Origin: Gammaproteobacteria bacterium
Lineage (GTDB): Bacteria; Pseudomonadota; Gammaproteobacteria; Steroidobacterales; Rariloculaceae
Length of the DNA: 64,000 nt
Assembly: GCA_022819855.1 (NCBI GenBank)
Contig: JAJEGN010000005.1
Coordinates: 69,724 to 133,723 of the forward strand
Direction: 5' to 3'
In this document: positions 2 to 64,000 of the stretch, piece after piece
Layout of the letters: each line of letters opens with the position of its first letter
Numbering within the stretch: position 1 is the stretch's first letter
Notes under the pieces: generated by a model
Seen by the model: the letters and a program-made list of their open reading frames with translations, nothing else
Databases searched by the model: none
Told to the model about the DNA's origin: nothing
Program-made: the position numbers and the translations under genes

Positions 2-628
2 TCTGCGAATCCGCGCTTGGAAAAGACCGTAACGAACCTGCCAAACGTCGTGCTGTCTTCCCGGCAGCACACTCCGACGGCTCAACGTCCCGAAGGAACA
101 CTTGTATTTATGAGAACTGGTGACGGAAACGATGCTCTCGCCTACATCGACCGCGGAGGCAAGAGCATCACCGAGTCCCCACTCGAAATCCTCTCTGCTG
201 CTGAGTGCGCCGTCGGCACACCAGCACAGCGTCGCCACGAAGACCACCACGAGCTAGTCGTCGCGGGGATCAAGCAGCTTGTCAGCGAGGAGAAACGAAT
301 CGGTGGGCAACTGGGTCGGCCCTCCGGCGCGCGGTTTCGAGCGTACACGCGTCTCAAGTCGTATGCTGATCGAATTGAGGGCCAACTGTTCGACACGGAC
401 TCACTCCATAAGTCGATAAACGAAATCTACCGCTATCCCTTGCGTCAGTTGGCGGTTGACACAGTGAACCGGCAGCTTCGCAGTGGCGTCGACGACGCTC
501 GTTTGGCGGAGGTTGTCATCTCCCTGTACGAAGAAGGCCGACTCTGCCTGACCGGCGACGACGCCGAGCTTCAGGAACCGCAGATCATCTGCTCGCTCGG
601 GCTCTTCGACTATGAGGCGCAATCGTGA
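2..628 (+). CDS. 3' end of a gene that begins left of the window; unidentified product, translationally coupled to the downstream DNA methyltransferase
   Basis: Frame is open from nt 2 (no stop before the TTG listed at 17). The stop TGA 626-628 overlaps the GTG start at 625 (GTGA). No catalytic motif recognised in the ~209 visible residues. GC is lower than the core. Confidence 0.45.
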   Translation, partial: SANPRLEKTVTNLPNVVLSSRQHTPTAQRPEGTLVFMRTGDGNDALAYIDRGGKSITESPLEILSAAECAVGTPAQRRHEDHHELVVAGIKQLVSEEKRIGGQLGRPSGARFRAYTRLKSYADRIEGQLFDTDSLHKSINEIYRYPLRQLAVDTVNRQLRSGVDDARLAEVVISLYEEGRLCLTGDDAELQEPQIICSLGLFDYEAQS

Positions 629-3600
629 CGCCCGTCTCCATCGAATCACTTCGCCCACATCTGCTTGACTTCAACTTCCGCCGCCTGTTCGTGGAGGGTC
701 TCGGTTGGGACCACCATCGAGCGGTACCGGTTTCAGTACTCGTCAATGACCATGAGTACTCACTCGAAGCCGTCGCGGAGAAAGCTGGCTTCGCGGTCTT
801 TGTTTGCAGCCCCGGTCGAGATGGAGCAGTACCTCCGTATCCGATACGGCGCAAAATCGAAAACCGAATTAGCACGCTGGCATTCGAGCATTTGATTGTG
901 TTCGTCGACGTCGACCGAACTACACAGACATGGCAATGGGTCAAGCGGGAGAGTGGTCAAGCAACGGCATGTCGGGAACAGACATTCCACGCTGGACACT
1001 CCGGAGAGGCGGTGTTGCAACGCCTACAAGAGGTCGCGTTCACGCTTGACGACGAAGCCAAAGGTATCCCCATTTCCGAGGTAACTGCTCGTGTCTACAA
1101 GGCCTTTGATGTAGAGAGGGTTACCAAGCGCTATTTTGAGCGTTTCAAGACCGAATTAGCTGCGTTCGGTAACTTCATCGAAGGCATCGCCGCCCAGGGT
1201 GATCGCGACTGGTACGCATCTCTCATGCTGAATCGCATGATGTTTGTGTATTTTGTTCAGAAGCGGGGTTTTCTTGACGGTGACATCAACTACCTCCGTA
1301 ACCGTTTGAAGATTGTCCAACAACAAAGTGGTGGCGCCCGCTTCCAGCAATTTTACCGGCTTTTTTTGCTACGTCTGTTTCATGAGGGTCTCGGGCAACC
1401 CGAAGCGCAGAGAGCTCCAGAGCTGGCAGCTCTGCTAGGTACAGTGCCCTTTCTCAATGGCGGCCTTTTTGACGTTCATGAGTTGGAGCGTGAAAACCCT
1501 GGAATAAATATTTCCGACGCAGCATTTGAAAGGATTTTCGATTTTTTTGATAGCTATCGCTGGCATCTGGATGAACGCCCCTATCGAGAAGACAACGAAA
1601 TTAATCCAGACGTACTCGGCTACATATTTGAGAAATTCATCAACCAAAAACAGATGGGTGCCTACTACACCAAGGAGGATATCACCGGATACATTACACG
1701 AAACACTGTAATTCCCTTCCTGTTTGACAAAGCAAAGAAGGAATGTCCCGTGGCCTTCGCGCCGTCGGGTGGCATTTGGAGTTTACTCTGCGACGACCCC
1801 GACCGGTACATTTATCCTTCCGTCGGTCACGGTATGGCGTGGAATGTGCGTCGGAACGGTTTGCCGGTACGCCTAGATGCGCCTATCGCGTTGCCCGAAG
1901 AAATAGCGGTTGGGATTAATGACGTTTCCAAACGCAGTAGCTGGAATGACTATGCTCCTGACGCCTACGCCCTGCAAACTGAGACATGGAGGGAAGTGAT
2001 TGCCCGCCGCCAGCGGTACAGTGAAGTTCGCGCCAGACTGGAGTCAGGAAAGTTGCAGAATATCGACGATCTCATCACGTTCAATTTGGATATCGAGAGG
2101 TTCACGAACGATGTAATTTCCCAGAGCGAAGGGCCCGAACTAGTACGCGCATTCTGGCACGCCATACATGAGATATCAGTGCTCGATCCTACCTGTGGTT
2201 CCGGTGCATTCCTGTTTGCAGCCCTGAAGACTCTAGAGCCACTCTACACCGCTTGCCTTGAGGGTATGCGAGGGTTTCTGAGCGACTTAGAGCAAACCGA
2301 GCGGCCGCATTCGCCAAGGGCGCTGCTTGATTTCCATGAAATCTTGGAGAGGATCAACGAGCACCCCAGCGAACGGTATTTCATTCTGAAATCCATCGTG
2401 CTCAACAACCTTTACGGTGTGGACATAATGGAAGAGGCCGTTGAAATCTGCAAGCTACGGCTCTTCCTCAAACTAGTTGCGCAACTGAAAACGTACGACC
2501 AAATCGAGCCCTTGCCTGACATAGATTTTAACATTCGAGCAGGTAACACGCTGGTCGGGTATACGTCCATAAATTCAGTGCGTAAGGCGATGACTGTGAC
2601 GGCTGACGGGCAACGTCGTCAAGTATTTCCTGAGGATAAGGCAACACTTGTTCGTATCGAGAAAGAAGCCCACGACGCGAGTGTTGCGTTTGAGGAATTC
2701 CGGACGAAGCAATCTGTGCTCGACGCATCAGTGCCGATCACCGACAAGGCTAGCTTGCAACAGCGGTTGGAGTCGTTACGGGAGGAGCTTGACCGATACT
2801 TAGCTTCCGAGTACGGAATCGATCTCAGACATCGGAGTCGCTACAACGCATGGCGTAGGAGCCATAAACCCTTTCATTGGCTGGTAGAGTTCTACGAGCC
2901 CATGCGCCGAGGTGGCTTTGACGTTATTGTCGGCAATCCACCGTATGTCGAAATGTCAAAGGTCAAAAAAGCGTACACGCTTCTGGGCTTAAACCTTACG
3001 AAGACCGGAAATCTATACGCAATTTGCATCGAGCGATTCTTAAATATTCTCGGAGCAAGTCGAAGGTTGGGAGTAATTGTGCCAATAAGTTCCATTTCCA
3101 CACCACGAATGTTGCCCTTGATGCGACTGCTGAGTAATGTTCATCGCCTCTATATAAGCAACTTTGCCGTGCGTCCATCAAAGTTGTTCGTAGGAGTGGA
3201 TATGAATCTCACCATTTTGCTGGGTACAAACCGAACTGATACACAGATTGTGCAAGTTTTTTCCACCAGGTATAACCGATGGCAGGAACACACAAGGCCG
3301 CATCTTTTTGCGACGATAGCGTATCGAGAGACAAATTTCTTTGATTCCATGGCAGCGTTCCCGAAGCTTGGGTGCCAAAAGGACAGAGAGATTCTTCACA
3401 AGCTCCGTAAGCATGAGTCGCTACAACAGTTTCGGGTTAAGCGAAGTAAGGATGCTATATTCTACCATAGTGGAGGACGCTATTTCCGAAAGTGCGTCAG
3501 GACTAAGCACTCCAATGAGTATAAAGAATTATTCGTAAAGGATGGATATTCGGAAAGCATTTTATGTCTACTTTCGTCATCGCTTTATTATTGGTTATGG

Positions 3601-3921
3601 ATACTTTTGTCGGACTGCTATCACGTAACTCAGCTCGATGTTGATACCGTACCTGTGGCCTCGTCGCTCATTCATGATGACGAGTTGGGTGGTTTGGCTG
3701 GAGAGTTAATAGATGACCTAAAAAGAAACTCTACGACTAGGACTCGAAAAAGGTCCGATGGAAGCATAAGGCGCGAAGTGAACTATGACGTTGGAGCGTC
3801 AAAGCATATTATTGATCGTATTGACAAGGTGCTAGGGACTCATTACGGACTTAGCGATGCGGATGTCGATTATATTGTAAACTATGACTTCAAATTTCGA
3901 TTTTCTGCAAGGAGGTCATGA
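625..3921 (+). CDS. Large (1098 aa) gamma-class N6-adenine DNA methyltransferase, Eco57I/type IIG-like layout with C-terminal specificity region
   Basis: Motif I DPTCGSGAFLF (nt 2185-2217) precedes motif IV VIVGNPPYVEM (NPPY = nt 2935-2946). The C-terminal SLYYWLWILLSDCYHVTQLDVDTVPV segment resembles TaqI_C-type target-recognition domains. No PD-(D/E)xK motif is visible in the ~520-aa N-terminal region. Confidence 0.85.
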   Translation: MTPVSIESLRPHLLDFNFRRLFVEGLGWDHHRAVPVSVLVNDHEYSLEAVAEKAGFAVFVCSPGRDGAVPPYPIRRKIENRISTLAFEHLIVFVDVDRTTQTWQWVKRESGQATACREQTFHAGHSGEAVLQRLQEVAFTLDDEAKGIPISEVTARVYKAFDVERVTKRYFERFKTELAAFGNFIEGIAAQGDRDWYASLMLNRMMFVYFVQKRGFLDGDINYLRNRLKIVQQQSGGARFQQFYRLFLLRLFHEGLGQPEAQRAPELAALLGTVPFLNGGLFDVHELERENPGINISDAAFERIFDFFDSYRWHLDERPYREDNEINPDVLGYIFEKFINQKQMGAYYTKEDITGYITRNTVIPFLFDKAKKECPVAFAPSGGIWSLLCDDPDRYIYPSVGHGMAWNVRRNGLPVRLDAPIALPEEIAVGINDVSKRSSWNDYAPDAYALQTETWREVIARRQRYSEVRARLESGKLQNIDDLITFNLDIERFTNDVISQSEGPELVRAFWHAIHEISVLDPTCGSGAFLFAALKTLEPLYTACLEGMRGFLSDLEQTERPHSPRALLDFHEILERINEHPSERYFILKSIVLNNLYGVDIMEEAVEICKLRLFLKLVAQLKTYDQIEPLPDIDFNIRAGNTLVGYTSINSVRKAMTVTADGQRRQVFPEDKATLVRIEKEAHDASVAFEEFRTKQSVLDASVPITDKASLQQRLESLREELDRYLASEYGIDLRHRSRYNAWRRSHKPFHWLVEFYEPMRRGGFDVIVGNPPYVEMSKVKKAYTLLGLNLTKTGNLYAICIERFLNILGASRRLGVIVPISSISTPRMLPLMRLLSNVHRLYISNFAVRPSKLFVGVDMNLTILLGTNRTDTQIVQVFSTRYNRWQEHTRPHLFATIAYRETNFFDSMAAFPKLGCQKDREILHKLRKHESLQQFRVKRSKDAIFYHSGGRYFRKCVRTKHSNEYKELFVKDGYSESILCLLSSSLYYWLWILLSDCYHVTQLDVDTVPVASSLIHDDELGGLAGELIDDLKRNSTTRTRKRSDGSIRREVNYDVGASKHIIDRIDKVLGTHYGLSDADVDYIVNYDFKFRFSARRS

Positions 3922-10517: not shown

Positions 10518-11132
10518 ATGTCCCAGAAAAAGACCGATCAGGCCACCGTCACGCGCTGCCCCTGGAGCCTCGGCGTCAACGACACCATGCTCCGCTACCA
10601 CGACACCGAATGGGGCATCCTGGTCCGCGACGACCACCGGCACTTCGAGTTCCTGGTCCTCGAGAGCGCGCAGGCGGGCCTGAGCTGGCGCACGATTCTC
10701 GACAAGCGCGAGGGCTACCGCCGCGCGTTTGCCGGTTTCGACGTGGAACGCGTCGCCCGCTTCAACCGGCGTTCGGTCGAACGCCTCGTGGCCGATCCCC
10801 GCATCGTCAGAAACCGCCTCAAGATCGAGTCGGCGATCAACAACGCGCGGCAGTTTCTGGCCGTCCAGGAGGAATTCGGCAGCTTCACCGACTACATCTG
10901 GCGCTTCGTCGGCGGCGAAACGATTGTCAATCGCTGGCAGACGCAAACCGAAATGCCAGCAACGAGCACCGAGTCGGATCTTCTGAGCCGCGACCTCAAG
11001 TCCCGCGGCTTCAAGTTCGTGGGCTCGATAGTCGTCTATTCGCACATGCAGGCGACGGGGCTCGTCAACGACCACATCGTCGACTGCTTCCGGCATGCCG
11101 AGTGCGGGCTTGAGAGCTTGCCGTCGCAATAG
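10518..11132 (+). CDS. tag: DNA-3-methyladenine glycosylase I
   Basis: RCPW ... YHDTEWG ... FEFLVLESAQAGLSWRTIL is the typical Tag signature. Confidence 0.9.
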   Translation: MSQKKTDQATVTRCPWSLGVNDTMLRYHDTEWGILVRDDHRHFEFLVLESAQAGLSWRTILDKREGYRRAFAGFDVERVARFNRRSVERLVADPRIVRNRLKIESAINNARQFLAVQEEFGSFTDYIWRFVGGETIVNRWQTQTEMPATSTESDLLSRDLKSRGFKFVGSIVVYSHMQATGLVNDHIVDCFRHAECGLESLPSQ

Positions 11133-11139
11133 CCATAAT
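11110..11139 (+). promoter_or_regulatory. Putative sigma70 promoter of tRNA-Arg copy 1 (TTGAGA - 18 nt - CATAAT)
   Basis: TTGAGA at 11110-11115 and CATAAT at 11134-11139, ending 22 nt before the tRNA 5' end. The same block is duplicated at 28801-28830. It lies within the last codons of tag. Confidence 0.35.
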
Positions 11140-11161
11140 CCGGCTGATCACTTTCACGACC

Positions 11162-11237
11162 GCGCCCGTAGCTCAGTGGATAGAGCGCTGCCCTCCGGAG
11201 GCAGAAGTCGGGGGTTCGAATCCCTCCGGGCGCGCCA
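11162..11237 (+). tRNA. tRNA-Arg (anticodon CCG), CCA encoded
   Basis: 76-nt cloverleaf. Acceptor GCGCCCG/CGGGCGC. Anticodon stem CTGCC/GGCAG with loop CTCCGGA. T-arm GGGGG-TTCGAAT-CCCTC, discriminator G, then CCA. Confidence 0.95.
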
Positions 11238-11312
11238 ACCTTCGACGGTCCATTCCGGACACATGGTTTACAGTTTGCTCCGTGGACGAAACCACGCTCG
11301 CAGGAAATCACG

Positions 11313-24945: not shown

Positions 24946-26541
24946 ATGCGATTCTCAACAGCAGCGTTTGCAACAGGCTTGGCAGCGCTTGCGATGGCGG
25001 GCGGCCTGACAAGCGTCGCGTCGGCACAGGAAGGGGCACCGGGAGGTCCAGCGCCCGAGGGGGCGCAGCCGGGCGGGCCGCCGCCCGGTGGACCGCCACC
25101 GGGAGGATTCCCACCGGGCGGACCGCCGCCTGGGGGGTTTCCGCCTGGAGGGCCGCCCCCTGGAGGGTTTCCGCCCGGCGGGCCGCCGCCCATGCCATCG
25201 ACCGCCGATACCGAATACACGGCGGCAATCCATGTCGAGGATGGCCGCTTCGATGCGGAACGATCCGAGTCCGAACAGGTCATCATGGCTGGCCGCATCG
25301 ATGACTCGGCCGCGGTCGATGTCCGGATCGAATCCGACCGGGACGACTTCAACGGCGTATTCGTGCGCGGAGAAGCGTCGACCTTTGCGCTGACCGACGC
25401 GACGATCAGGCTCAATGGCGACGGCAGCAACGACTTCCTCGGGCTCGGCGCCGGCGTGATGGCCGAAGGCGGCGCCACGGTCATCGTGACGGACGTCGAC
25501 ATCGAAACGAACGGCGTGATCGCAGCGGCTACCATCGCAACGGGGAACGCGGTCATGCGTGTGTATGACTCGACGCTGCGCGCCAATGGCGGGGAGCTTC
25601 CCGATGACTTCGTTCCGGTGATCGGTCCGGGCATGAAGACGCCGCCGGCGCCGCTCGGCATCACCGGCACGGCGCGCACGAACGTGACGATGGGCAACGC
25701 CCGGAGCTACTTCTACGACTCCACGATCATCGCCGAAGGCTGGGGCGCGCTGTCCACGGACGCCTGCGGCGGCGACGTCTATCTCGAGGCCAACGACTCG
25801 GTAATCATCGTCAACAACAGCGGCTATGGTCTCTACGCCGACAACGGCTGCACCGTCGTCTTCAACGACTCGACGATCACGTCAGCCACCTACGGCGGCA
25901 TTCTGGCCGGCGTCGGCTACATCACGTTGAACAACGTGGCGACGGAAGCGGCGAAGAACGTCCTGATGATCCACAGCGTGTTCGGGCGCCCGTCGGAGTC
26001 AGGCAGCGTGACCATCAGCGGGGGCAGCCATCAGAGCGGCGAGGCGATCGTTCTCGTGAAGAGCGCCAACCTGAATCTCGAAATCGACGGGGCGACACTC
26101 GATCCGGGCGACGGCAATCTCATTCACTCGATCGTCAACGACGACGCCAACAGAACTAGGGTCGACGGCGCCGAGACGCCGGGGATCAACGTAACGCTCA
26201 GCAACATGACCCTGAACGGCGACATTCGGCATGAAGACACCGTGGACCGGGACATGACGGTTTCGCTGCTTGGCACGCACCTGACCGGCGCGGTCGTCGA
26301 TGCGCAAATCAACCTCGATGACGACAGCAACTGGACGGCCACCGGCGACTCCCGCGTTCGCCTCGACGATGCTCGCGACATCGATCGGATCGATGCGCTG
26401 CCGGGAGTGGTCGTCACGGTCGTTGACAGAGACGATGCCATGGTTGCCGCGAGCCGCCGTCTGCCGGGCGGCGGGCAACTCGTCGTCGAGAGTGCTGCGG
26501 TGCCTGCGGCGGCGCTTGCCGCTGCTACGGGCGGACGATAA
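24946..26541 (+). CDS. Secreted protein with N-terminal (PPGGPPPGGF)n repeat and probable parallel beta-helix body
   Basis: Signal peptide AALAMAGGLTSVASAQ, then the Pro/Gly repeat. After that come periodic short beta-strand/turn segments rich in N/G/T/V (..NDSVIIVNNSGYGLYADNGCTVVFNDSTITSATYGG..). Confidence 0.5.
   Translation: MRFSTAAFATGLAALAMAGGLTSVASAQEGAPGGPAPEGAQPGGPPPGGPPPGGFPPGGPPPGGFPPGGPPPGGFPPGGPPPMPSTADTEYTAAIHVEDGRFDAERSESEQVIMAGRIDDSAAVDVRIESDRDDFNGVFVRGEASTFALTDATIRLNGDGSNDFLGLGAGVMAEGGATVIVTDVDIETNGVIAAATIATGNAVMRVYDSTLRANGGELPDDFVPVIGPGMKTPPAPLGITGTARTNVTMGNARSYFYDSTIIAEGWGALSTDACGGDVYLEANDSVIIVNNSGYGLYADNGCTVVFNDSTITSATYGGILAGVGYITLNNVATEAAKNVLMIHSVFGRPSESGSVTISGGSHQSGEAIVLVKSANLNLEIDGATLDPGDGNLIHSIVNDDANRTRVDGAETPGINVTLSNMTLNGDIRHEDTVDRDMTVSLLGTHLTGAVVDAQINLDDDSNWTATGDSRVRLDDARDIDRIDALPGVVVTVVDRDDAMVAASRRLPGGGQLVVESAAVPAAALAAATGGR
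25081..25191 (+). repeat. In-frame 30-nt tandem repeat, 3.7 copies, encoding PPGGPPPGGF
   Basis: Units at 25081-25110, 25111-25140 and 25141-25170, plus a partial unit at 25171-25191. All differences between units are synonymous. Confidence 0.9.
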
Positions 26542-28610: not shown

Positions 28611-28800
28611 GCGATTCGTTGTTGCCGGCGATTATGCATGAGACCGACCGGACGACACGCAGCGCCTTCCAGGCCCTCCCATGCATCCGGCCTAGCCTAG
28701 GGTGCACCGGTCTCAGCGGCCAATCGTTTAGGCAAATACTTCGTATCGGATGGGCAAATCCGGAGAGGCACGCCCGGCGTGGCATCCGTACTATGCGGGC

Positions 28801-28830
28801 TTGAGAGCGTGCGCTCGCAACGCCCATAAT
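28801..28830 (+). promoter_or_regulatory. Putative sigma70 promoter of tRNA-Arg copy 2 (TTGAGA - 18 nt - CATAAT)
   Basis: Duplicate of the 11110-11139 block. GCGGGCTTGAGAGC..CATAATCCG is conserved between the copies. Confidence 0.35.
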
Positions 28831-28859
28831 CCGTTCGACGGCTTGCTGCCGTTACGACC

Positions 28860-28935
28860 GCGCCCGTAGCTCAGTGGATAGAGCGCTGCCCTCCGGAGGC
28901 AGAAGTCGGGGGTTCGAATCCCTCCGGGCGCGCCA
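28860..28935 (+). tRNA. tRNA-Arg (anticodon CCG), second identical copy
   Basis: 76/76 nt identical to 11162-11237. Confidence 0.95.
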
Positions 28936-28950
28936 TTTTGCGATGTTTCG

Positions 28951-29038
28951 TTCCGGAGACATGGTTGACACTTTCAACGGGGCGAGCCGCGTTGTCGTGG
29001 CTTCCCCAATCCCAGATGTGTAAACCATGTCTCCGGAA
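28951..29038. repeat. 21-nt inverted repeat (one mismatch) separated by 46 nt, immediately downstream of tRNA copy 2
   Basis: Left arm TTCCGGAGACATGGTTGACAC (28951-28971). Right arm GTGTAAACCATGTCTCCGGAA (29018-29038). A single related arm sits at 11253-11272 after tRNA copy 1, with the same 15-nt offset. Confidence 0.9.
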
Positions 29039-55966: not shown

Positions 55967-57058
55967 ATGGCTGCATTCGATCTTCCCTCAAAACTCTCGA
56001 CATACCGGCTTCGCCTGTACCATCATTATTCACGTTCGGGTGAACGACTGCTGCGTGACGTTATCCGAAGATCATATGTTCATGTAGTCGAAGGGACCGT
56101 TTCCGACCGATGGAACGGCGGTACCTACGGCCACGACGCGCATTTCTACTTGCCAATTGAAGAACTGACCAAAGTCAATATCGACGATATCGAAGTTTTC
56201 ACAGAGCGAATCTGTGAAGATCTGAACAAAGTCTGTGATCGTGGCAAGCACGAGTTTTTCTCCACTGTTCACCTGCAGCTTTACGACGAGACCGACGAGC
56301 ACTGCCGCCGCGCCAAACCATTCCGTGGCAGCCCGGATCGCGATCCCGATACATTGTCTATCTGGAAGCGCGGGATGGTTCGCCTGTTCATCAGCCACCG
56401 CGACGAGCATAAGGCCAAGGCGAATGAACTGGCGCAAGCCCTGGAACCCTATGGCATATCGTCCTTCGTTGCACACGATTCGATCGAACCGATGACCCGT
56501 TGGCAGACCGAGATTCTTAACGGCCTGGAAACAATGGAAGCCATGCTGGCCTTTATCACCGATGATTTTCGCGAAAGCGTCTGGGCAAACCAGGAAATCG
56601 GTTTCGCCCTGGGCAGGGGAATTCCGATTGTTTCGCTGAAAATCCAGAAGTCAGACCCACACGGATTCATCGGCAGCCAACAGGCTCTCAAGTGCCATGT
56701 CGACGACATTGACACCGCGGCTCCCAAAATCTACGGGCTTATCGCGGAGAAGCTTGACAACGCCGAAAGATTGCAGCAGTCGCTCATACGCTCATTTGTG
56801 GCTTCGCCAAACTTCATTGAATCAATGGCCAGATTCGACCGAATGAACGCTGTCGTGTCCAACCTATCCGACCCCGAAGTTCAGCAAATCGTGAACGGTT
56901 ATCGGGATAACGACCAGCTTCATAACGCAGCCTATTTCAGGAGCCGTAATGGAAGGCTGTGCATGTTTCTGAATCGCGTAACCGGAAAGACATTCATCGT
57001 CGAGCGAAAAAATCTCGTTACTGTCGGCGACTCCGAAGAACTTGATGTTCCGTTCTGA
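55967..57058 (+). CDS. TIR-domain protein with unknown N- and C-terminal domains
   Basis: Residues ~137-245: VRLFISHRDEHKAKANELAQAL..SFVAHDSIEPMTRWQTEI..AMLAFITDDFRESVWANQEIGFA. This is a bacterial TIR pattern, with candidate catalytic Glu210 at nt 56594-56596. Low-GC island. Confidence 0.75.
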   Translation: MAAFDLPSKLSTYRLRLYHHYSRSGERLLRDVIRRSYVHVVEGTVSDRWNGGTYGHDAHFYLPIEELTKVNIDDIEVFTERICEDLNKVCDRGKHEFFSTVHLQLYDETDEHCRRAKPFRGSPDRDPDTLSIWKRGMVRLFISHRDEHKAKANELAQALEPYGISSFVAHDSIEPMTRWQTEILNGLETMEAMLAFITDDFRESVWANQEIGFALGRGIPIVSLKIQKSDPHGFIGSQQALKCHVDDIDTAAPKIYGLIAEKLDNAERLQQSLIRSFVASPNFIESMARFDRMNAVVSNLSDPEVQQIVNGYRDNDQLHNAAYFRSRNGRLCMFLNRVTGKTFIVERKNLVTVGDSEELDVPF

Positions 57059-57202
57059 CAATGTATTTCATAAAGGCCCAGAGGGCGCGCTCTCAAGAGC
57101 ATCAGCGAATCGTGGTCGATCGCGTCGTTGAGAGCGTCGCAAGAAAGCAAGTCAAAGCGGATTTAGGCACGCATTCAACTGTTGTTTGCAGTATCCCGTG
57201 GC

Positions 57203-58066
57203 ATGAACACGAACTCATCAGGAAGACGATTTGGCAGGACGACGCTCGTTGCGGCAGCGGAATTCCTCGAAGGCCATGTGCAGGCCGGATTCAACCAGAT
57301 GGCCGTCCGATTGGAACTGGAACGCGAAATACCGGAGGACACGGGTATGAGCGTGCAAAAGAAGTGCGCTCGGCTCGCGCGGATCGTCGCGAACGACCCG
57401 GATAGGGAAATCGACACGCTTGAAGGACGAAAGACATTGGCCGAGGCTGTCATTCTTGAGGCATTGGCACTGGCCGAATACGAGTCCGGCAATCGGGCAC
57501 AGATGGTACTCGAGCAGTCCCTAGCACGAGATGGCTACGCACTTCACTGGGAAGAGGGTGAGGAGTTCGCACGTTCTTGGTCCGGACGCGGCGGCGCGGC
57601 GCTAATTTCTGCGCTGCCACAGGAGTTAGCGGCTGACGAGCCCAATGATGAAGTTCGCCAGATCTTGCAGGAAAAAGGATTCGAGAGGACTCTGGGGCAC
57701 CTGAACCAGGCAGTGAGTGGTCACGGACGCGGCGATTGGGCAGCGGCGAACAGCCAGGTCCGCACGTTCGTGGAGAGCCTGGTGGAGGAGATAGCAATTG
57801 ACGTGGGTGTCACGAACGCGCATGAGTTGACCGCGGAAAACCGTCTTCGTGCACTACACAACCTTGGATTTCTCTCCAGTGAGCGCAATGAATGGTTGGG
57901 AGACGGCAAGGGTTTCATCAACGGGCTGATTAAGATGCTGCATACGGAAGGATCGCATCCTGGGTTGTCGGATGCAGATCACAGCACCTTCAGGTTACAT
58001 GTAGTATTGGTGACGGCTAGATTGTTGCTGCGCCGGTTGCGAGAGTTTCGCAATGACGATCGGTGA
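57203..58066 (+). CDS. All-helical protein with Abi_C/HEPN-like C-terminus; tentative
   Basis: ATG 57203 in ORF 57182..58066. The C-terminal INGLIKMLHTEGSHPGLSDADHSTFRLHVVLVTARLLL follows the Abi_C pattern (..lRN..g.aHG...), but with H in place of R. A separate R-x4-H occurs in NRLRALHNLG. Confidence 0.45.
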   Translation: MNTNSSGRRFGRTTLVAAAEFLEGHVQAGFNQMAVRLELEREIPEDTGMSVQKKCARLARIVANDPDREIDTLEGRKTLAEAVILEALALAEYESGNRAQMVLEQSLARDGYALHWEEGEEFARSWSGRGGAALISALPQELAADEPNDEVRQILQEKGFERTLGHLNQAVSGHGRGDWAAANSQVRTFVESLVEEIAIDVGVTNAHELTAENRLRALHNLGFLSSERNEWLGDGKGFINGLIKMLHTEGSHPGLSDADHSTFRLHVVLVTARLLLRRLREFRNDDR

Positions 58067-58259: not shown

Positions 58260-59258
58260 ATGTCAGTGCTGGTCGAAGACATCGAACTTGACCAGTCAAA
58301 CCCAAGGATTCGTAAGTTCCTTGAAATGTACGGCGACGAACCAACTTCAGAGCAAATCTTCCTTGCCCTCGGTGCCGGGAACGAGGATGACGTCGGTTCA
58401 TCGAACAGCACCACTTATGAGAAGCTTAAACAATCGATCATTTCGAACGGTGGCATCATACAGCCGATAATCTTGAACCGACGCAGCGACGGATCGCTGA
58501 TTTGCGTCGAGGGCAATACGCGTGTCGCCCTTTACAAACACTTTCACGATACCAATGTAAAAGGCGACTGGACGCACATCCCGGCATTGGTTCATGATGA
58601 GATCGACCAAGCGTCGGTCCACGCAATTCGCCTGCAGGTACATCTGGTTGGCCCCCGCCCTTGGGATCCCTATTCAAAAGCCAAGTACCTGTACGAGCTT
58701 CGCACACAGCAGCATCTTCCCTTCGCAACCATCGTGGACTATTGCGGTGGGCGCCAAAACGAAGTGGTCGAGAGCATAAATGCCTACGCTGACATGGAGC
58801 AATACTATCGTCCAGTTGTCGGCGACGACGGAGAGTTCGACACGACTCGCTTCAGTGGATTTGTGGAATTGCAGAAGCCCGGGCTGAAGCAGGCCATCAC
58901 TGCCGCAGGATTCGACTTAAGCGACTTCGCTCGATGGATTCATGACGGTAGGCTCTTCCCCCTGCAGAAGGTACGAGTACTTCCTCGTATCTTGCGCAAT
59001 GAGAAGGCCCGCGCGATTTTTCTCAAGCAGGGTGCGCGCACGGCTGAGTCAGTGCTGGAAAAGCCAGACCTAAATCGGACGCTTCAGGAGGCTGAAATCG
59101 GCCAATTTGCGCGGGCGCTGGTCGCCAAGATCGCCTCACTCCCTTACAGTGAGTGCCAACGAATTTCGAACGATATCGGCGGCGATACAGCACAGGCCCT
59201 AATTGACGCTCAAGCTGAACTCACGGAATTGACCAAATCCCTCGGCCTAACAACCTGA
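58260..59258 (+). CDS. ParB N-terminal (ParB/Srx fold) domain protein, paralogue 1
   Basis: ATG 58260 with AGGAG 5 nt upstream. IELDQSNPRI, then LKQSIISNGGIIQPIIL..DGSLICVEGNTRVALYKH (GxxR box at nt 58512-58523). Helical C-terminal half. Confidence 0.7.
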   Translation: MSVLVEDIELDQSNPRIRKFLEMYGDEPTSEQIFLALGAGNEDDVGSSNSTTYEKLKQSIISNGGIIQPIILNRRSDGSLICVEGNTRVALYKHFHDTNVKGDWTHIPALVHDEIDQASVHAIRLQVHLVGPRPWDPYSKAKYLYELRTQQHLPFATIVDYCGGRQNEVVESINAYADMEQYYRPVVGDDGEFDTTRFSGFVELQKPGLKQAITAAGFDLSDFARWIHDGRLFPLQKVRVLPRILRNEKARAIFLKQGARTAESVLEKPDLNRTLQEAEIGQFARALVAKIASLPYSECQRISNDIGGDTAQALIDAQAELTELTKSLGLTT

Positions 59259-59259
59259 T

Positions 59260-59673
59260 ATGCCCGAGTCAGCGGCCCATTCCAGCCTAGTCCAGACCGT
59301 CATCCGCTACGCGGAACGCGAATTCGGGGGCCTTGCCAATATCGCGATCCGAGAGGACGCGCTACGTCCGCTTAGGGGAGAAAGGCCGCCGAAAATTGAA
59401 GGCCATGTTCCAGACGTGTTCGTTATCAATGTCCCGACCACCACGACACTCATCGGCGAAGCCAAAACAGAGCACGATATCGATACTCACCATTCGCACC
59501 AGCAGATTTCAGCCTTTCTGCGTTACCTGTCAAATACGCCGCGGGGCATATTCGTATTTAGCGTTCCCTTCGGCTCCGCCGCGGCAGCCCGTAGGCTTCT
59601 TGCCCAACTCAACCAGCCCTTCTCGCACGCTGCCACCAGAACAGTCGTACTCAACACCTCAGATCTAGAGTAG
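59260..59673 (+). CDS. Small (137 aa) putative PD-(D/E)xK nuclease-fold protein
   Basis: HVPDVFVINVPTTTTLIGEAKT gives P51-D52 (nt 59413-59415) and E67-A-K69 (to nt 59466). Its start is 1 nt after the upstream stop. Confidence 0.5.
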   Translation: MPESAAHSSLVQTVIRYAEREFGGLANIAIREDALRPLRGERPPKIEGHVPDVFVINVPTTTTLIGEAKTEHDIDTHHSHQQISAFLRYLSNTPRGIFVFSVPFGSAAAARRLLAQLNQPFSHAATRTVVLNTSDLE

Positions 59674-59686
59674 AAATGATTCAGCT

Positions 59687-61168
59687 ATGTTGAAGGTTCG
59701 GAAGGCAGCAAATCTTCAAGCCAAATGGTCCGCATTCCCGCATCAACTGGATGCCTTCGAAGCAATCAAGGACCTCCCCTACGCGGCAGTTTTTCACGAG
59801 CAGGGACTTGGGAAAACAAAAATCGGCCTCGACCTGGCCTTGTCTTGGTTGGATCGCGATATCGTTGATTCTGTTCTTGTCGTCGCCAAGAAGTCGCTAA
59901 TCGCCAATTGGCGGTCGGAAGTAGCGACCCATTCCCACTTGACCCCGCGCATCCTGGGACAAGACCGCAACGCGAACTTTTTCGCCTTCAACAGCCCTGT
60001 GCGCCTTTATCTAATGCACTATGAGGCGCTGGTTTCGGAGCGCAAGCGCTTGGATCTCTTCCTTAGAACCCGCCGCGTGGGTGTGCTGCTGGACGAGGCG
60101 CAGAAGATCAAGAACCCCAACACGAGGATTAGCCGCGCGCTTCACGCACTTGCCGACGGCTTCGTCCGTCGAGTCATCATGACTGGTACCCCCGTAGCCA
60201 ATCGTCCCTACGATCTGTGGTCGCAGGTACGGTTCCTCGACGGCGGCAAGTCACTCGGTCACGATTTCACGGACTTCAAGCGCGCTCTGGACTTGACGAA
60301 CGAGCTCGCCCGTGACACGGAGCGTGCGACCGCCTTTGCCTCTGATCTCGACAGGCTCTTCGACAAGATTTCCCATTTTTCGATCCGCGAGACCAAGAAG
60401 ACCGCCGGACTGAATCTACCGGGCAAAACAATTCAAAACGTAGAGTGCCAGCTCGAGTCATCTCAGGCCGAGATGTACAACCAGTTCCGCTACGAACTCG
60501 CGGCCGTCGTCGTTCAAGAGGGACGAGCTGTTCTGGACGACGCCGAAGGCCTGCTAAAGCGCCTGCTTCGCCTAGTTCAAGTCGCATCGAATCCCGCGAC
60601 GATCGACCAATCCTACAAGGCACAACCCGGCAAACTCTTGTATTTGGACAACCTGGTCCACGAAGCGGTGGATGCAGGCGACAAGGTTATCGTCTGGACA
60701 TCGTTCACTGCAAACGCGGACTTTCTGGGACTGCATCTGGCCGAGTTTGGCGCCGTTGTTGTGCATGGTGGGCTTAGCCTCGGAGTTCGCGAAGAAGCGC
60801 TTGCTACTTTCAAGACCAATCCGGAGTGCCAAGTCCTTGTAGCCACACCCGGAGCTGCGAAGGAAGGGCTGACGTTAACTGTCGCCAACCATGCGGTGTT
60901 TTTTGATCGCAGCTTCAGTCTCGACGATTACCTGCAAGCGCAAGACCGTATCCATAGAATTTCGCAAGACAAACCCTGCCATGTAACCAATTTGGTTGCG
61001 ACTGGTACGGTAGACGCTTGGGTGGACGCATTGCTAGCCGCCAAGCATCTGGCTGCTCAACTCGGACAAGGCGACATTACCCGCCGGGAATACGACCGCC
61101 GCGCCGACTACGCGTTTGGAGATATGGTTCGAGATGTCCTGCAGCTAGACGGAGCAGTTGAACAATGA
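59687..61168 (+). CDS. Compact SNF2-family helicase/translocase
   Basis: Motif I EQGLGKTK (nt 59804-59818), II LLDEAQKIKN (DEAQ = nt 60092-60103), III MTGTPVANRPYDLWSQVRFL, V ATPGAAKEGLTL, VI QAQDRIHRISQ. Confidence 0.9.
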   Translation: MLKVRKAANLQAKWSAFPHQLDAFEAIKDLPYAAVFHEQGLGKTKIGLDLALSWLDRDIVDSVLVVAKKSLIANWRSEVATHSHLTPRILGQDRNANFFAFNSPVRLYLMHYEALVSERKRLDLFLRTRRVGVLLDEAQKIKNPNTRISRALHALADGFVRRVIMTGTPVANRPYDLWSQVRFLDGGKSLGHDFTDFKRALDLTNELARDTERATAFASDLDRLFDKISHFSIRETKKTAGLNLPGKTIQNVECQLESSQAEMYNQFRYELAAVVVQEGRAVLDDAEGLLKRLLRLVQVASNPATIDQSYKAQPGKLLYLDNLVHEAVDAGDKVIVWTSFTANADFLGLHLAEFGAVVVHGGLSLGVREEALATFKTNPECQVLVATPGAAKEGLTLTVANHAVFFDRSFSLDDYLQAQDRIHRISQDKPCHVTNLVATGTVDAWVDALLAAKHLAAQLGQGDITRREYDRRADYAFGDMVRDVLQLDGAVEQ

Positions 61169-62175
61169 CCGACTCAAAAACAAAAGATTCACAGCCAGAG
61201 ACACTGCTCATTCGCGGGGTGGATATACCAGTTCAGACTGTGACGATGTTGCAGGCAGATCTCCGCTTCTTTGTCGACAATCCGCGGGTCTATTCCATCC
61301 TTCGATTGGACGGCAGCAAGCCAAGCCAGGCCGACATACAGCAAAAGCTGCTTAAAATGGATCACGTCAAAGCACTGATTCAGGACATAAAGCGCGATGG
61401 CGGACTAACCGATCCTGTCATCGTCCGGGCCGGTAGTATGGAGGTCTTGGAAGGAAACAGCCGACTCGCGGCTTACCGCGTGTTGTACAGGATCGACCCT
61501 ATTAGGTGGGCCAAGATCAAGTGCAGGCTCTTGCCCGAGGATATCGATGAACGTCTCATCTTCGCGCTACTCGGTCAGTACCACATCAAGGGCAAGAAGG
61601 ATTGGGCCCCGTTTGAACAGGCTGGATTTCTCTATCGACGTTCAACGACTCACAATCTTGACCCCGCACAGCTCGCCCGAGAGATCGGCTTGTCGAAGAG
61701 GAAGGTCGAACACCTTATCGCCACCTACCAGTTCATGCTCGATCATAAAGAGAGCGATACAGCCCGCTGGAGCTACTACGACGAATATCTGAAGTCCCGG
61801 ATAATCCGTAAAGCGCGGCTCAATCAGCCCGGCTTCGACGACCTTGTCGTCGAGAAGATCAAGTCTGGAGAGATTGCGAAAGCAGTCGATGTCCGCAACC
61901 GATTGCCCGTGATCTGCTCTGCGCCCAAGGTATTGAAGAAATTCGCGAAGAGGGCTTATGACTTCGAGGATGCGCACGAACAAGCCGTGGATGCCGGGGC
62001 CGACAGCGCGCCCTATCGAAGGCTTGCCACATTTCGGCAATGGATTGCGAAGCCGGAAGTGGCCAGAACCCTGGGACGTACTCAAGGACAGACCCGGAAG
62101 AAAATTGAGTTCGAGCTTGACAAGCTCGCGAGGCGCATCCAGGTCGTGAGAGGCCAGCTCAATCGGAAAACCTGA
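61165..62175 (+). CDS. ParB N-terminal domain protein, paralogue 2
   Basis: ATGA overlap with the SNF2 stop. FVDNPRV, then LIQDIKRDGGLTDPVIVRAGSMEVLEGNSRLAAYR (GxxRxxA box at nt 61453-61464). Its C-terminal half is alignable with that of 58260..59258. Confidence 0.7.
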   Translation: MTDSKTKDSQPETLLIRGVDIPVQTVTMLQADLRFFVDNPRVYSILRLDGSKPSQADIQQKLLKMDHVKALIQDIKRDGGLTDPVIVRAGSMEVLEGNSRLAAYRVLYRIDPIRWAKIKCRLLPEDIDERLIFALLGQYHIKGKKDWAPFEQAGFLYRRSTTHNLDPAQLAREIGLSKRKVEHLIATYQFMLDHKESDTARWSYYDEYLKSRIIRKARLNQPGFDDLVVEKIKSGEIAKAVDVRNRLPVICSAPKVLKKFAKRAYDFEDAHEQAVDAGADSAPYRRLATFRQWIAKPEVARTLGRTQGQTRKKIEFELDKLARRIQVVRGQLNRKT

Positions 62176-62241
62176 ATCTACGCCAGGTCACAAAACGCAC
62201 GACGGCAGATATACCCCTTGACTCGCAGAAAAAATCAACGC

Positions 62242-62266
62242 AAAGTGCAGCCTACGGCTGCACTTT
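62242..62266 (+). promoter_or_regulatory. Perfect 11-bp stem / 3-nt loop hairpin in the only sizeable intergenic gap of the operon
   Basis: AAAGTGCAGCC-TAC-GGCTGCACTTT, followed 8 nt later by TTTT. A TTGACT hexamer lies at 62218-62223 upstream. The function (attenuator, terminator or processing site) is not established. Confidence 0.5.
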
Positions 62267-62283
62267 AGGGGAATTTTCGGCTC

Positions 62284-63312
62284 ATGTCGTCCACAATTGC
62301 GATCGACTGCCTCCGCGGCCGGTCGGCGCACCGTTCAGTCTTGCTCGGGTGTGCGCCCGCAGACTTGCTGTATAAGGTGAGCTTTCCGGATGTTTTCGAC
62401 GAGGATAGCGGACACGGCTATCAGCGACCCTTCAATGAGCGGCACAGTCAGGACTTCCGGCGCTACATCAAGAAAGCTCACAGTTCAACCATTCCGCTGA
62501 CACTGAACCTACGGCCTTCTGCCGAAGGCAAGTGGCGCATCCTCGAATTGACCAATGGCAGGGTTCGGTTGGAAATAGATGCCAATGCAGGAAAGATCAT
62601 GGCGCAGGTCGATTGCCAGCACCGGCTCGGCCATTTGGGTGACCTCCCGATTCAGTTGCCCTTCATGTGTTTCATTGGGCTCTCCGAGCAGGACGAGATG
62701 GAGATTTTCAGCATCATAAACGGCAAAGCCAAGGGACTGAGCACTAGCTTGCTGGACTACCACGCAGCGCAGCTTGCCGAGAATCTGGCAGAAGACCGCC
62801 CAGAATTGTTCATCGCATTACAGCTCAACAGCATCGAAGACTCGCCATTCTTTCGACGGTTGAACTTAGGCGGTAAGACCACATCCGGACTCAAGCGAAT
62901 TGTCTCGTTGCGGATGATGCAGCAGGCAGTCAAGAAATTCTTGAAGGCAACCGCAATCCTTTCCACTGACTCTGTTGACCACGCCGCTACCGTGGTCCTT
63001 GACTTCTGGACTGCGGTCTCGGTTGTGCTTGCAGACCAATGGGCGAACCCCCGTCGACATATGATTGCCAAGGGTATCGGGGTCTATTCGCTCATGACGA
63101 TAGCAGCCGATATTTACATAGAGTGCCGTGATGCCGATAGGAACTGCGACAGGCGGGCCTTCATCACTGCCCTGGCAGATTTTGCCGGCTCGATTGATTG
63201 GTCCACCTCAGGCCCTCTCAAGGGGTTTGGCGGACAAGGCGGGGTCACGGCCGCCGTTGACCACCTACGCGAAGCGAGAAAACAGGCACGATACAAGGTG
63301 GTGAATGGCTAA
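62284..63312 (+). CDS. DGQHR-domain (DndB/DpdB-like, ParB-fold) protein
   Basis: GYQRPFNERHSQDFRRYI, then QVDCQHRLGHL (DCQHR = nt 62611-62625). This is a variant of the DGQHR signature. Confidence 0.75.
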   Translation: MSSTIAIDCLRGRSAHRSVLLGCAPADLLYKVSFPDVFDEDSGHGYQRPFNERHSQDFRRYIKKAHSSTIPLTLNLRPSAEGKWRILELTNGRVRLEIDANAGKIMAQVDCQHRLGHLGDLPIQLPFMCFIGLSEQDEMEIFSIINGKAKGLSTSLLDYHAAQLAENLAEDRPELFIALQLNSIEDSPFFRRLNLGGKTTSGLKRIVSLRMMQQAVKKFLKATAILSTDSVDHAATVVLDFWTAVSVVLADQWANPRRHMIAKGIGVYSLMTIAADIYIECRDADRNCDRRAFITALADFAGSIDWSTSGPLKGFGGQGGVTAAVDHLREARKQARYKVVNG

Positions 63313-64000
63313 CAAGAACATTCTCCTCATTGAACCGGGCTACAAGAACAAGTATCCACCGCTCGGTTTGATGAAGATTGCCCAATATCACGGTCCGCGT
63401 GGCAAGAGAGACCGTGTGCGCTTCATCAAGGGAACCGACCGCTCGGTTCTATCTGAGGCTTGGGACCGGATCTACGTCACGACGCTTTTCTCTTTCGAAT
63501 ACCGAAAGACCGCACAGACGATCGACTTCGCCTTGGATGTCGCCAATAGGCAGGCCGACAAAGTCTTCGTCGGCGGCATAGCAGCGTCGCTCATGCATGA
63601 ACGCTTCCTTAACGAACCGCGCTGGCAAGGCGTGCGCTTCATCAAAGGACTGCTGTCAGCGCCGCCCGCGATTTCCCTTCAACTTGATGACTTCGCAGAA
63701 GAGCTCTACGCAGACGACACCATCGGGAAGCCGATAGAAGATCTCGTGCCAGATTACGGCATCATTGACCAGATCGACTATAACTACGCCGTTCGGGACG
63801 CGTACTTTGCGTACACGACCCGTGGCTGCATCCGCAAATGTCACTTTTGCGGTGTGCCAAAGCTTGAGGGCAAACAGCGCGACACTGAGTCGTTGAGTTC
63901 AACCGTACGTGCCATTGAGGAACTATACGGGCCGAAGAAAGACCTGATCCTCATGGACAACAACGTTGTCGCTTCTCCTCGCTTTAAGGAAATAATTGCC
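63305..64000 (+). CDS. Radical SAM protein with B12-binding-like N-terminal domain (5' partial; runs off the window)
   Basis: Not in the ORF track because there is no stop. ATG 63305 overlaps the upstream gene by 8 nt, and the frame is open for 232 codons. NILLIEPGYKNKYPPLGLMKIAQYH (B12-binding-type start), then YTTRGCIRKCHFCGVP with CxxxCxxC at nt 63827-63850. Confidence 0.8.
   Translation, partial: MANKNILLIEPGYKNKYPPLGLMKIAQYHGPRGKRDRVRFIKGTDRSVLSEAWDRIYVTTLFSFEYRKTAQTIDFALDVANRQADKVFVGGIAASLMHERFLNEPRWQGVRFIKGLLSAPPAISLQLDDFAEELYADDTIGKPIEDLVPDYGIIDQIDYNYAVRDAYFAYTTRGCIRKCHFCGVPKLEGKQRDTESLSSTVRAIEELYGPKKDLILMDNNVVASPRFKEIIA

Follow-up and report, generated by a model that had tools for sequence, protein, structure and literature searches.

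A modular radical SAM–GHKL operon with interchangeable nuclease modules, a candidate DNA modification–restriction system of the Dnd/Dpd type

Introduction

What is the function of an operon in which two ParB-like proteins, a small candidate nuclease, an SNF2 ATPase, a DGQHR-domain protein and a radical SAM (rSAM) enzyme are encoded one after another? The question is raised by the 3' end of a 64,000-nucleotide (nt) stretch of DNA (the "window" throughout) from a gammaproteobacterium of the Rariloculaceae (contig JAJEGN010000005.1, positions 69,724 to 133,723), where an earlier note, made from the sequence alone, had singled out six co-directional genes, here g1 to g6, as a possible DNA-modification or defence operon. 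They are the first six genes, the 5' two-thirds, of a nine-gene operon whose invariant core is an rSAM–GHKL pair, usually accompanied by the DGQHR protein and by optional, interchangeable accessory modules. From gene content, linkage and conserved motifs, we give a modest preference to the reading that the operon is a modular DNA modification–restriction system of the Dnd/Dpd type, with the rSAM enzyme as its putative writer.

Organization of the operon

The window ends within g6. By an exact-protein look-up, this DNA was also located on a metagenome-assembled scaffold of 393 kb, here locus L001. Adding 52283 to an L001 coordinate gives the position in the window; positions past 64000 are called virtual and continue the window numbering. 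Downstream of the window, L001 carries the rest of the rSAM gene and then genes for a GHKL ATPase, a PIN_8 protein and a second GHKL ATPase, after which the strand switches. The operon does continue beyond the window, as the earlier note had expected, by three further genes on the parent contig. In the list that follows, module A is ParB–small nuclease–SNF2–ParB (g1–g4) and module C is the PIN_8–GHKL pair.

58260..59258, plus strand: g1, ParB-like protein 1, 332 residues from ATG; module A
59260..59673, plus strand: g2, candidate PD-(D/E)xK-type nuclease, 137 residues, from motif conservation only; module A
59687..61168, plus strand: g3, minimal SNF2 ATPase, 493 residues, from Pfam; module A
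61165..62175, plus strand: g4, ParB-like protein 2 (ParB2), 336 residues, from AlphaFold2 (AF2) and Foldseek; module A
62242..62266, no strand: hairpin with an 11-bp perfect stem and a 3-nt loop, read directly from the sequence
62284..63312, plus strand: g5, DGQHR-domain (DndB/DpdB-like) protein, 342 residues, from TIGR03187; core module
63305..64000, plus strand: g6, rSAM enzyme, 232 of its 544 residues in the window, gene end at virtual 64939; core
virtual 64936-66519 (on L001): GHKL1 ATPase, 527 residues, 4-nt overlap with the rSAM gene
virtual 66591-68510 (on L001): PIN_8 nuclease, 639 residues
virtual 68500-70050 (on L001): GHKL2, the second GHKL ATPase, 516 residues

Between g1 and g2 there is 1 nt and between g2 and g3 there are 13 nt; g3 and g4 overlap at an ATGA, 108 nt lie between g4 and g5, and g5 and g6 overlap by 8 nt. 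The gene count, spacing and low-GC setting first described for the six genes are all correct, save that one gap is 13 nt and not 14. The 4-nt overlap of g3 with g4 and the 8-nt overlap of g5 with g6 suggest translational coupling, of the kind that also links the rSAM gene to GHKL1. GC content is 54-56% in the operon versus 65-68% in the flanks and most of the window, and the low-GC island spans about 16 kb on the extended contig, from ~55300 to ~71300 in window numbering. The perfect hairpin reported for the single 108-nt gap is indeed present, at the boundary that joins module A to the DGQHR–rSAM–GHKL core. A role as a plus-strand terminator is not supported: the T-run follows on the minus strand, and a consensus scan gave a terminator score only there.

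Two further assemblies of this organism match the window from 59160 onwards, a point 99 nt before the g1 stop codon. In NCBI assembly GCA_022827975.1 (L004, 1-2564) a complete IS66-family element, with TnpA/TnpB/TnpC, occupies the sequence before this position, and in the second (L005, 1-30) IS66 likewise abuts window position 59160 inside g1. The junction suggests either a strain variant with g1 disrupted or a branch in the assembly graph.

An invariant core with interchangeable modules

The rSAM family is very large and unusually conserved. More than 7,800 database proteins belong to it, and there are 272 clusters at 50% identity with E below 1e-30. Identity to the query is 78-100% for the best 120 proteins; those few among them that bear a name are called only "radical SAM protein" or "hypothetical protein". 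A scan of one genome per species (185,579 species representatives) found 309 stretches that encode a relative, and 80 of these loci, with rSAM proteins 67-84% identical to the query, were kept; counts out of 80 below refer to this set, and neighbourhoods were clustered from crude open reading frame (ORF) calls (longest ORFs). Represented among the 80 loci are Alphaproteobacteria, Binatia, Acidobacteriota, Eremiobacterota, Armatimonadota, Verrucomicrobiota and Gammaproteobacteria.

In 80/80 loci the rSAM gene has a GHKL gene as its immediate neighbour, and a DGQHR gene lies directly upstream of rSAM in 61/80. Module A is present in 33/80, and PIN_8 in 35-46/80 depending on the method. Modules A and PIN_8–GHKL occur on either side of the core, in either orientation, and substitute for one another. 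Other companions recur as well: a ~790-residue Card1-like nuclease fused to a DGQHR domain is found in 17/80 loci, and a set comprising a HerA/FtsK ATPase, a GHKL protein and a PP_RS20740-like protein stands next to the core elsewhere, with a DUF5131 protein in some such loci. The core is thus rSAM–GHKL, with DGQHR usual but not universal, and the accessory modules are optional and interchangeable. Two expectations of the earlier note change accordingly. The gene set does recur across phyla, but in modular form, with ParB–nuclease–SNF2–ParB no fixed part of it; and where rSAM and DGQHR had been proposed as the writer pair, the obligate partner of rSAM is a GHKL protein encoded outside the window, DGQHR being the less constant companion.

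The alternative module by the core in Acidobacteriota loci L062, L064, L069, L074-L076, L079 and L080 consists of HerA/FtsK, GHKL, a PP_RS20740-like 290-residue protein and a DUF5131 protein akin to "radical SAM mobile pair protein A". Locus L174 (3118-9554) carries two tandem pairs of a ~550-residue rSAM-sized gene and a GHKL gene (558+522 and 546+491 residues). A single PIN_8–GHKL module follows downstream, and IS66 and AbiE genes are close by. The rSAM-sized genes have no Pfam match on record and are candidate rSAM genes by size.

Such separable modules, variable in orientation and position, and with module A set off from the core by 108 nt that include a hairpin, are what would be expected if two or three independent systems (ParB–nuclease–SNF2–ParB, DGQHR–rSAM–GHKL and PIN_8–GHKL) were simply neighbours in a defence island. 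That explanation has hardly any claim on belief, in view of what is found when the accessory modules themselves serve as anchors. A metagenome test anchored on ParB2 drew on 80 loci, 60 of them informative and 20 with flanks too short. In 57 of the 60 informative loci rSAM was present, in 14 of these at <60% identity; recurrence in these 57 and in the 80 genome loci exceeds what chance would give. The 3 loci without rSAM have one informative flank each, and none lacks rSAM when both flanks are ≥3.5 kb. PIN_8–GHKL pairs only 41-46% identical to the query adjoin an rSAM-sized gene and a GHKL gene, with or without DndB, in 4/4 cases examined, and rSAM homologues at 41-44% identity retain the same partners. 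A natural fusion joins two core proteins: database protein P0210 (791 residues) links the C-terminal half of a DGQHR protein to an rSAM N-terminus (BLASTP 2e-18). The genes upstream of the operon, by comparison, are true strangers to it. The TIR gene and the adjacent 255/294-residue ORF (described below) were considered as parts of the system and rejected, being conserved with the operon in 0/80 loci. ParB2 and PIN_8 anchoring, the distant homologues and the fusion together argue that the accessory modules depend on the core and that there is one modular system.

Median identity to the window proteins is 74% for rSAM, 59% for SNF2, 56% for DGQHR, 49% for GHKL1, 48% for ParB, 40% for GHKL2, 36% for the 137-residue protein and 32% for PIN_8. 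This gradient, high in rSAM and lower elsewhere, fits a constrained writer with faster-evolving restriction parts. Catalytic motifs are intact throughout: the cluster motif of rSAM, the Bergerat motifs of the GHKL proteins, the acidic residues of PIN, the motifs of SNF2 and the E/PD/EAK signature of the small nuclease.

The core proteins

By its predicted structure g6 is a member of the radical SAM superfamily, with the CxxxCxxC motif in a partial TIM barrel that is preceded by an N-terminal Rossmann-like domain of the cobalamin-binding type. The motif is C175/C179/C182 and is conserved in 40 sequences down to 31% identity; the Pfam Radical_SAM model scores below threshold (23.7 bits vs 29.5). 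The AF2 model of the full 544-residue protein has a predicted local distance difference test (pLDDT) score of 87, and its N-terminal α/β domain is modelled with high confidence. The top Foldseek matches are MgmA, TsrM, MiaB, CysS, OxsB and TokK, with MiaB/RimO also close. A MiaB/RimO-type methylthiotransferase was considered and dismissed: the only columns with ≥90% cysteine are C175, C179 and C182, so that the conserved cysteines are those of the rSAM triad, none is conserved in the N-terminal region, and there is no TRAM match.

The class B rSAM methylases (MgmA, TsrM, CysS, TokK and OxsB) share with g6 the two-domain architecture and the CxxxCxxC motif, at Foldseek E-values of 2e-9 to 3e-6. 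They differ in that identity is only 10-15% with TM-scores of 0.36-0.56, that Pfam B12-binding finds no match here, that the present family has a ~130-residue C-terminal helical domain specific to it, and that its partners are a GHKL ATPase and a DGQHR protein. The initial description of g6 as a B12-binding-type radical SAM enzyme is borne out in its motif and its class B fold neighbours, with cobalamin binding as a putative property.

Three rSAM homologues of ~805-824 residues (P0144, P0159 and P0163) bear a ~380-residue helical C-terminal extension with no Pfam match, and in locus L086 a long rSAM of this kind follows ParB–138-residue protein–SNF2–ParB with no separate DGQHR gene.

The two GHKL proteins match HATPase_c_3 at 36.7 and 47.4 bits, and score best against Hsp90/HtpG-type models. 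In GHKL1, residues E53, N57 and D60, then D94, G96 and G98, then G123, F124, R125, G126, G128 and R129 are ≥90% conserved, a pattern that identifies it as a predicted GHKL ATPase with intact Bergerat motifs I-III. The acidic residues of the PIN domain are intact in the PIN_8 protein of module C.

The g5 product scores 132.5 bits against the DGQHR model TIGR03187, well above the curated cutoff of 58.85, and its assignment as a DGQHR protein stands, even though the motif itself reads DCQHR (D110-C111-Q112-H113-R114), with C111 ≥90% conserved in this subfamily. It also matches Pfam DndB (2.6e-7) and the PADLOC DpdB model (6.8e-17). Against the DpdB equivalog NF041060 it reaches 59.2 bits where the cutoff is 300, i.e., it is a DGQHR-domain protein but no DpdB equivalog, and the DndB equivalog TIGR03233 gave no match to g5 at E ≤ 0.01.

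The accessory proteins of module A

Neither g1 nor g4 has an above-threshold Pfam match, although ParB_N and HTH_ParB are the commonest sub-threshold Pfam matches among g4 orthologues, and some g4 homologues are named "ParB N-terminal domain-containing protein" by NCBI. Searches against solved structures with single-sequence g4 and g5 and with a ParB2-family profile returned nothing at E ≤ 1; it is therefore AF2 and Foldseek that point to the ParB fold. The g4 model (pLDDT 86) has ParB, Noc, Spo0J, KorB or PadC as all of its top 35 Foldseek matches in the PDB (probabilities 0.97-1.00). Along its full length the g1 protein aligns with g4 as a paralogue (hhalign probability 100%, E 1.7e-49), and its assignment follows from that relationship. 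In g4 the box E96-G97-N98-x-R100 is invariant, the NPR, EGNxR and H..R.W motifs are invariant in 23 g1 orthologues, and the NPR and EGNxR boxes are invariant in both families. Both proteins can thus be placed, g4 on its modelled structure and g1 as its paralogue, in the ParB/Srx superfamily, with an N-terminal NTPase fold carrying a GxxR-type box and a helix-turn-helix (HTH), in agreement with what the earlier note had said of them. Comparison of the ParB2 and DGQHR families by hhalign detected no relationship (probability 0.1%), and a shared superfamily of the two is therefore not shown by profiles.

CTP-dependent clamps of the ParB/Noc/KorB type have the same N-terminal NTPase and HTH fold, with NPR and GxxR-type boxes. 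They differ from the present paralogues, which always flank SNF2 and the mini-nuclease, show no ParA or partition context in the clustered neighbourhoods and sampled neighbour proteins, and carry EGN(S/T)R in place of the canonical GERR box.

The 137-residue g2 protein has no hidden Markov model match in Pfam, NCBIfam or PADLOC. Across 25 orthologues with 27-73% identity there is no variation at E3, H7, P51-D52 or G66-E67-A68-K69-T70, a pattern that fits an active PD-(D/E)xK nuclease and makes g2 a candidate for one; the nuclease-like PD..EAK signature noted at the outset therefore holds up as motif conservation.

The g3 protein matches SNF2-rel_dom at 2.5e-27 (96 bits) and Helicase_C at 5e-16 (59 bits) in Pfam, and its GLGK, DE(A)Q and QxxDRxHR motifs are ≥95% conserved, which confirms it as a minimal SNF2 ATPase with all motifs. 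Its nearest relatives are the helicase cores of ZorD, DpdE and SCO1167-type proteins, and its score is far under every equivalog cutoff.

Relation to known systems

The Dnd, Ssp and Dpd systems are each described as a conserved enzymatic core with swappable, faster-evolving helicase and nuclease modules, in which a DGQHR protein stands beside the modifying enzyme (PMC10853773, PMC12839542). In both Dpd and the present operon there is a DGQHR/ParB-superfamily protein beside a (here putative) modifying enzyme, the g3 SNF2 helicase resembles the DpdE core (PADLOC 4.5e-35), and a large mobile operon combines a writer block with a helicase/nuclease restriction block. There are also differences: g3 reaches only 34 bits against the DpdE cutoff of 500 and g5 only 59 bits against the DpdB cutoff of 300, the putative writer here is an rSAM–GHKL pair, and the nucleases here are PIN_8 and a mini-restriction endonuclease. 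DpdA (TGT), DpdC (DUF328) and preQ0 genes had no match in the nine operon proteins (Pfam, NCBIfam, PADLOC).

With Dnd and Ssp the operon shares a DndB-family DGQHR protein and a conserved modification block onto which variable nuclease modules are docked (PMC10853773), and restriction endonuclease–DGQHR fusions in related loci match DGQHR_dnd_1. It differs from them in having no sulfur-mobilising enzyme, while an rSAM enzyme is foreign to Dnd/Ssp; DndA/IscS, DndC, DndD/SspC-type, DndE and SspABCD proteins were not detected in the operon or a 10-kb extension. Echoes of Dnd (through DndB) and of Dpd (through DpdB and SNF2 helicases) had been noticed in the sequence from the start, and the DGQHR and DpdE-like core matches bear these out. 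A canonical Dnd, Dpd or Ssp core downstream would have told against the earlier note; GHKL, PIN_8 and GHKL were found there instead, and the other outcomes that it had named as adverse also fell in its favour wherever they could be examined.

GHKL ATPases of the MORC and paraMORC families have been described in restriction–modification operons (Iyer, Abhiman & Aravind 2008, PMC2292703). Like the present operon, these are mobile and restriction–modification-like and place a GHKL protein with intact Bergerat motifs beside SNF2 or other SF2 helicases and nucleases. Unlike them, the GHKL proteins here are Hsp90/HtpG-like, one is obligately paired with rSAM and not with a methyltransferase, and rSAM, ParB and DGQHR partners have 0 occurrences in PMC2292703.

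No existing PADLOC model covers the system, as had been anticipated. In PADLOC v2.0, rSAM, GHKL1 and PIN_8 have 0 matches and the remaining operon proteins only generic helicase, ParB or DpdB-domain matches, while NCBIfam has no system model matching the core. PDC-M38A is the only PADLOC model touched by g1 (3e-6) and g4 (3e-11), in both through the ParB-like N-terminal region; the match covers ~150 of 715 model positions, no other operon component matches PDC-M38 models, and the open-access literature yielded no paper describing PDC-M38. The gene set is not covered in the Dnd and BREX reappraisal papers (PMC10853773, PMC12839542) or the 2008 MORC paper (PMC2292703).

A proposed marking and restriction mechanism

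How might these proteins work together? It is proposed that the DGQHR–rSAM–GHKL core would place a covalent mark on the DNA of the host itself. Loading the rSAM enzyme, opening the duplex and exposing the target atom would be the task of the two NTPases, DGQHR and the GHKL clamp, as it is that of the DpdB ATPase for DpdA, DpdB being a ParB-like ATPase needed for Dpd DNA modification (PMC12839542). The ParB-like clamps, the SNF2 translocase and the nucleases would then scan DNA and cut what is unmarked. The case for marking and restriction is that a slow enzymatic core, swappable modules and a DGQHR protein match the Dnd/Ssp/Dpd pattern; components other than rSAM all come from DNA-handling families.

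As to the mark itself, cobalamin-dependent methylation of a carbon or phosphorus centre would be the most natural guess from the rSAM fold, and radical chemistry could give a C-methyl, a P-methyl or another adduct beyond SN2 methyltransferases. The more specific proposal is that the self label is a covalent DNA mark of a kind not described before, put in place by a cobalamin-type rSAM enzyme that has the DGQHR NTPase and the GHKL clamp as its loaders; we hold it tentatively. It is from the observed anatomy, linkage, folds and intact active sites that we infer a DNA substrate, self/non-self logic and the use of cobalamin.

Several points weigh against the modification–restriction interpretation. 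DNA is a putative rSAM substrate, proposed by indirect argument, and the known substrates of the fold neighbours are protein (MgmA), tRNA (MiaB), tryptophan (TsrM) and small molecules. The Pfam B12-binding model misses the rSAM protein and matches only two distant homologues, below threshold. The nuclease modules yielded no modified-base reader domain (SRA, YTH, HARE-HTH and similar). In 20/80 loci neither module A nor module C is present, and most of these loci carry another accessory module. A Pfam survey of 150 random neighbour proteins, made without a control set, gives a qualitative mobile-element picture, and no defence-island enrichment is claimed. Finally, full-text searches of open-access papers and bioRxiv preprints found no description of the gene set, and one elsewhere is possible.

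The main rival, though we think it unlikely, accepts a single conflict system but dispenses with self-marking: rSAM–GHKL would be an effector or sensor acting on the invader, cellular nucleotides or RNA after detection of foreign DNA by ParB, DGQHR and SNF2. It might damage DNA by radicals, make a nucleotide analogue as viperin does, or modify tRNA or rRNA and so cause abortive infection. That an rSAM enzyme can serve as an antiviral effector is known from prokaryotic viperins. This precedent, the tRNA enzyme MiaB among the fold neighbours and the missing reader domain all speak for such an effector, and the linkage data are equally compatible with every single-system model. The protein departs from viperin, however, in its N-terminal Rossmann domain and its long helical domain at the C-terminus, and up to three dedicated nucleases are already present, which would make a further effector redundant. 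The rSAM protein is the slowest-evolving part, unlike typical fast-evolving effectors and sensors. To our knowledge, DGQHR systems described so far (Dnd, Dpd) all modify DNA to mark it as self, a further point against an effector.

Should the modification–restriction reading hold, the operon would add a third, radical-SAM-based chemistry to the non-methyltransferase DNA self-marking systems (Dnd/Ssp and Dpd) and would give a function to a very large, conserved family known only as "radical SAM protein". The mark would be the third DGQHR-associated epigenetic mark after phosphorothioate and 7-deazaguanine, widespread in soil Alphaproteobacteria, Acidobacteriota, Binatia and other phyla. A new DNA adduct, if real, would be categorically new chemistry and of importance to epigenomics; it could explain odd single-molecule real-time (SMRT) and nanopore signals in rhizobia and sphingomonads, and would bear on the genetic tractability of these bacteria and on enzyme chemistry on duplex DNA. 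Culturable, tractable strains carry the operon, among them Novosphingobium aromaticivorans DSM 12444 (plasmid pNL1) and Rhizobium leguminosarum WSM1325, and so do several plasmids of Rhizobium and Mesorhizobium. Were the substrate something other than DNA, an obligate rSAM–GHKL pair with swappable nuclease modules would still represent a new conflict-system architecture.

Genomic setting and distribution

The operon is found on chromosomes and on 12 large PLSDB plasmids, at variable sites with the hallmarks of mobile elements. Seven of the 12 plasmids are conjugative, and pNL1, where the genes (SARO_RS17510 to SARO_RS17535) are annotated only generically, is among the 12. Neighbouring genes encode integrases, resolvases, RepA, ArdC, AbiE, DUF932, SRAP, RadC and ERF proteins, and housekeeping genes occur there too.

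Such company raises the question of whether the operon serves the mobile element itself, modifying its own DNA to escape host restriction, or excluding competing plasmids, with the ParB-like proteins acting in maintenance or plasmid conflict. We consider this rather improbable, though less so than repair or chance adjacency. The plasmids, the ArdC, DUF932, SRAP, RadC, ERF, RepA, integrase and resolvase neighbours, and a role for ParB/Srx proteins in plasmid conflict (PMC12839542, citing Maindola 2014) are in its favour. Most loci, however, are on long chromosomal contigs, at variable sites beside housekeeping genes. The operon is not tied to partition or conjugation modules; a constant tie to them would have told against the earlier note. 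No constant replication, partition or transfer gene stands alongside, and no ParA-type gene was seen among the clustered gene neighbourhoods or the sampled neighbour proteins, although no ParA-specific search was made. Up to three nucleases, moreover, would suit restriction better than anti-restriction. Defence systems commonly ride on mobile elements, and mobile context as such does not discriminate.

The distribution bears equally on a role in DNA repair or chromosome maintenance, in which an rSAM lyase or repair enzyme would act together with nucleases, SNF2 and an ATPase resembling MutL. Among rSAM enzymes, spore photoproduct lyase repairs DNA, and repair pathways include GHKL (MutL) and SNF2 proteins as well as nucleases of PIN type. 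Against these precedents stand the patchy distribution (309/185,579 species representatives), the low-GC island, the mobile contexts and module swaps, the apparent IS66 disruption in a strain variant, and rSAM identity of 67-84% across phyla. Patchiness, island, mobility, swaps and cross-phylum identity point to horizontal transfer of an accessory trait, and a repair function seems very improbable. Accidental adjacency, plasmid maintenance and DNA repair are all less likely than the main rival.

A phage collection held only distant rSAM homologues (<40% identity), none in the context of the system; the match in a Marinitoga virus adjoins HerA/NurA. A BFVD fold search returned generic B12-like rSAM proteins only.

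Neighbouring genes in the window and on L001

Just upstream of the operon lies the TIR gene (55967-57058; TIR_2, 2e-14), whose nearest models, ThsB and Thoeris type III ThcB4, are both matched below cutoff. It is followed, in the same low-GC island, by an ORF at 57182-58066 (255/294 residues) without matches, and the two are probably a separate defence gene pair. The TIR gene that had been taken to fit a defence island is thus real, but it is an unrelated neighbour of the operon.

Past the strand switch on L001, the minus strand (L001 17976-19702, virtual 70259-71985) carries a 136-residue ORF of no family with one marginal PADLOC match (E 0.002), then a 119-residue fragment matching PADLOC mREase_II (1e-25; type II methyl-directed restriction enzyme), and after it a ParE/ParD toxin–antitoxin pair at the island edge.

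Elsewhere in the window, a 1098-residue ORF on the plus strand (625-3921, GC 48-55%) has Eco57I (9e-23) and MmeI methyltransferase domains and is probably a type IIG restriction–modification enzyme, which would make a second defence-type island in the window. Two tRNA-Arg(CCG) genes (11103-11276 and 28794-28974) lie 17.7 kb apart, with ~180 bp of flank repeated at 85-91% identity; they may represent either duplication of a tRNA locus or the two termini of an integrated element. At 25039-25191 lies a degenerate tandem repeat (period 15/30 nt) that would encode a Pro/Gly-rich (PGG-type) stretch.

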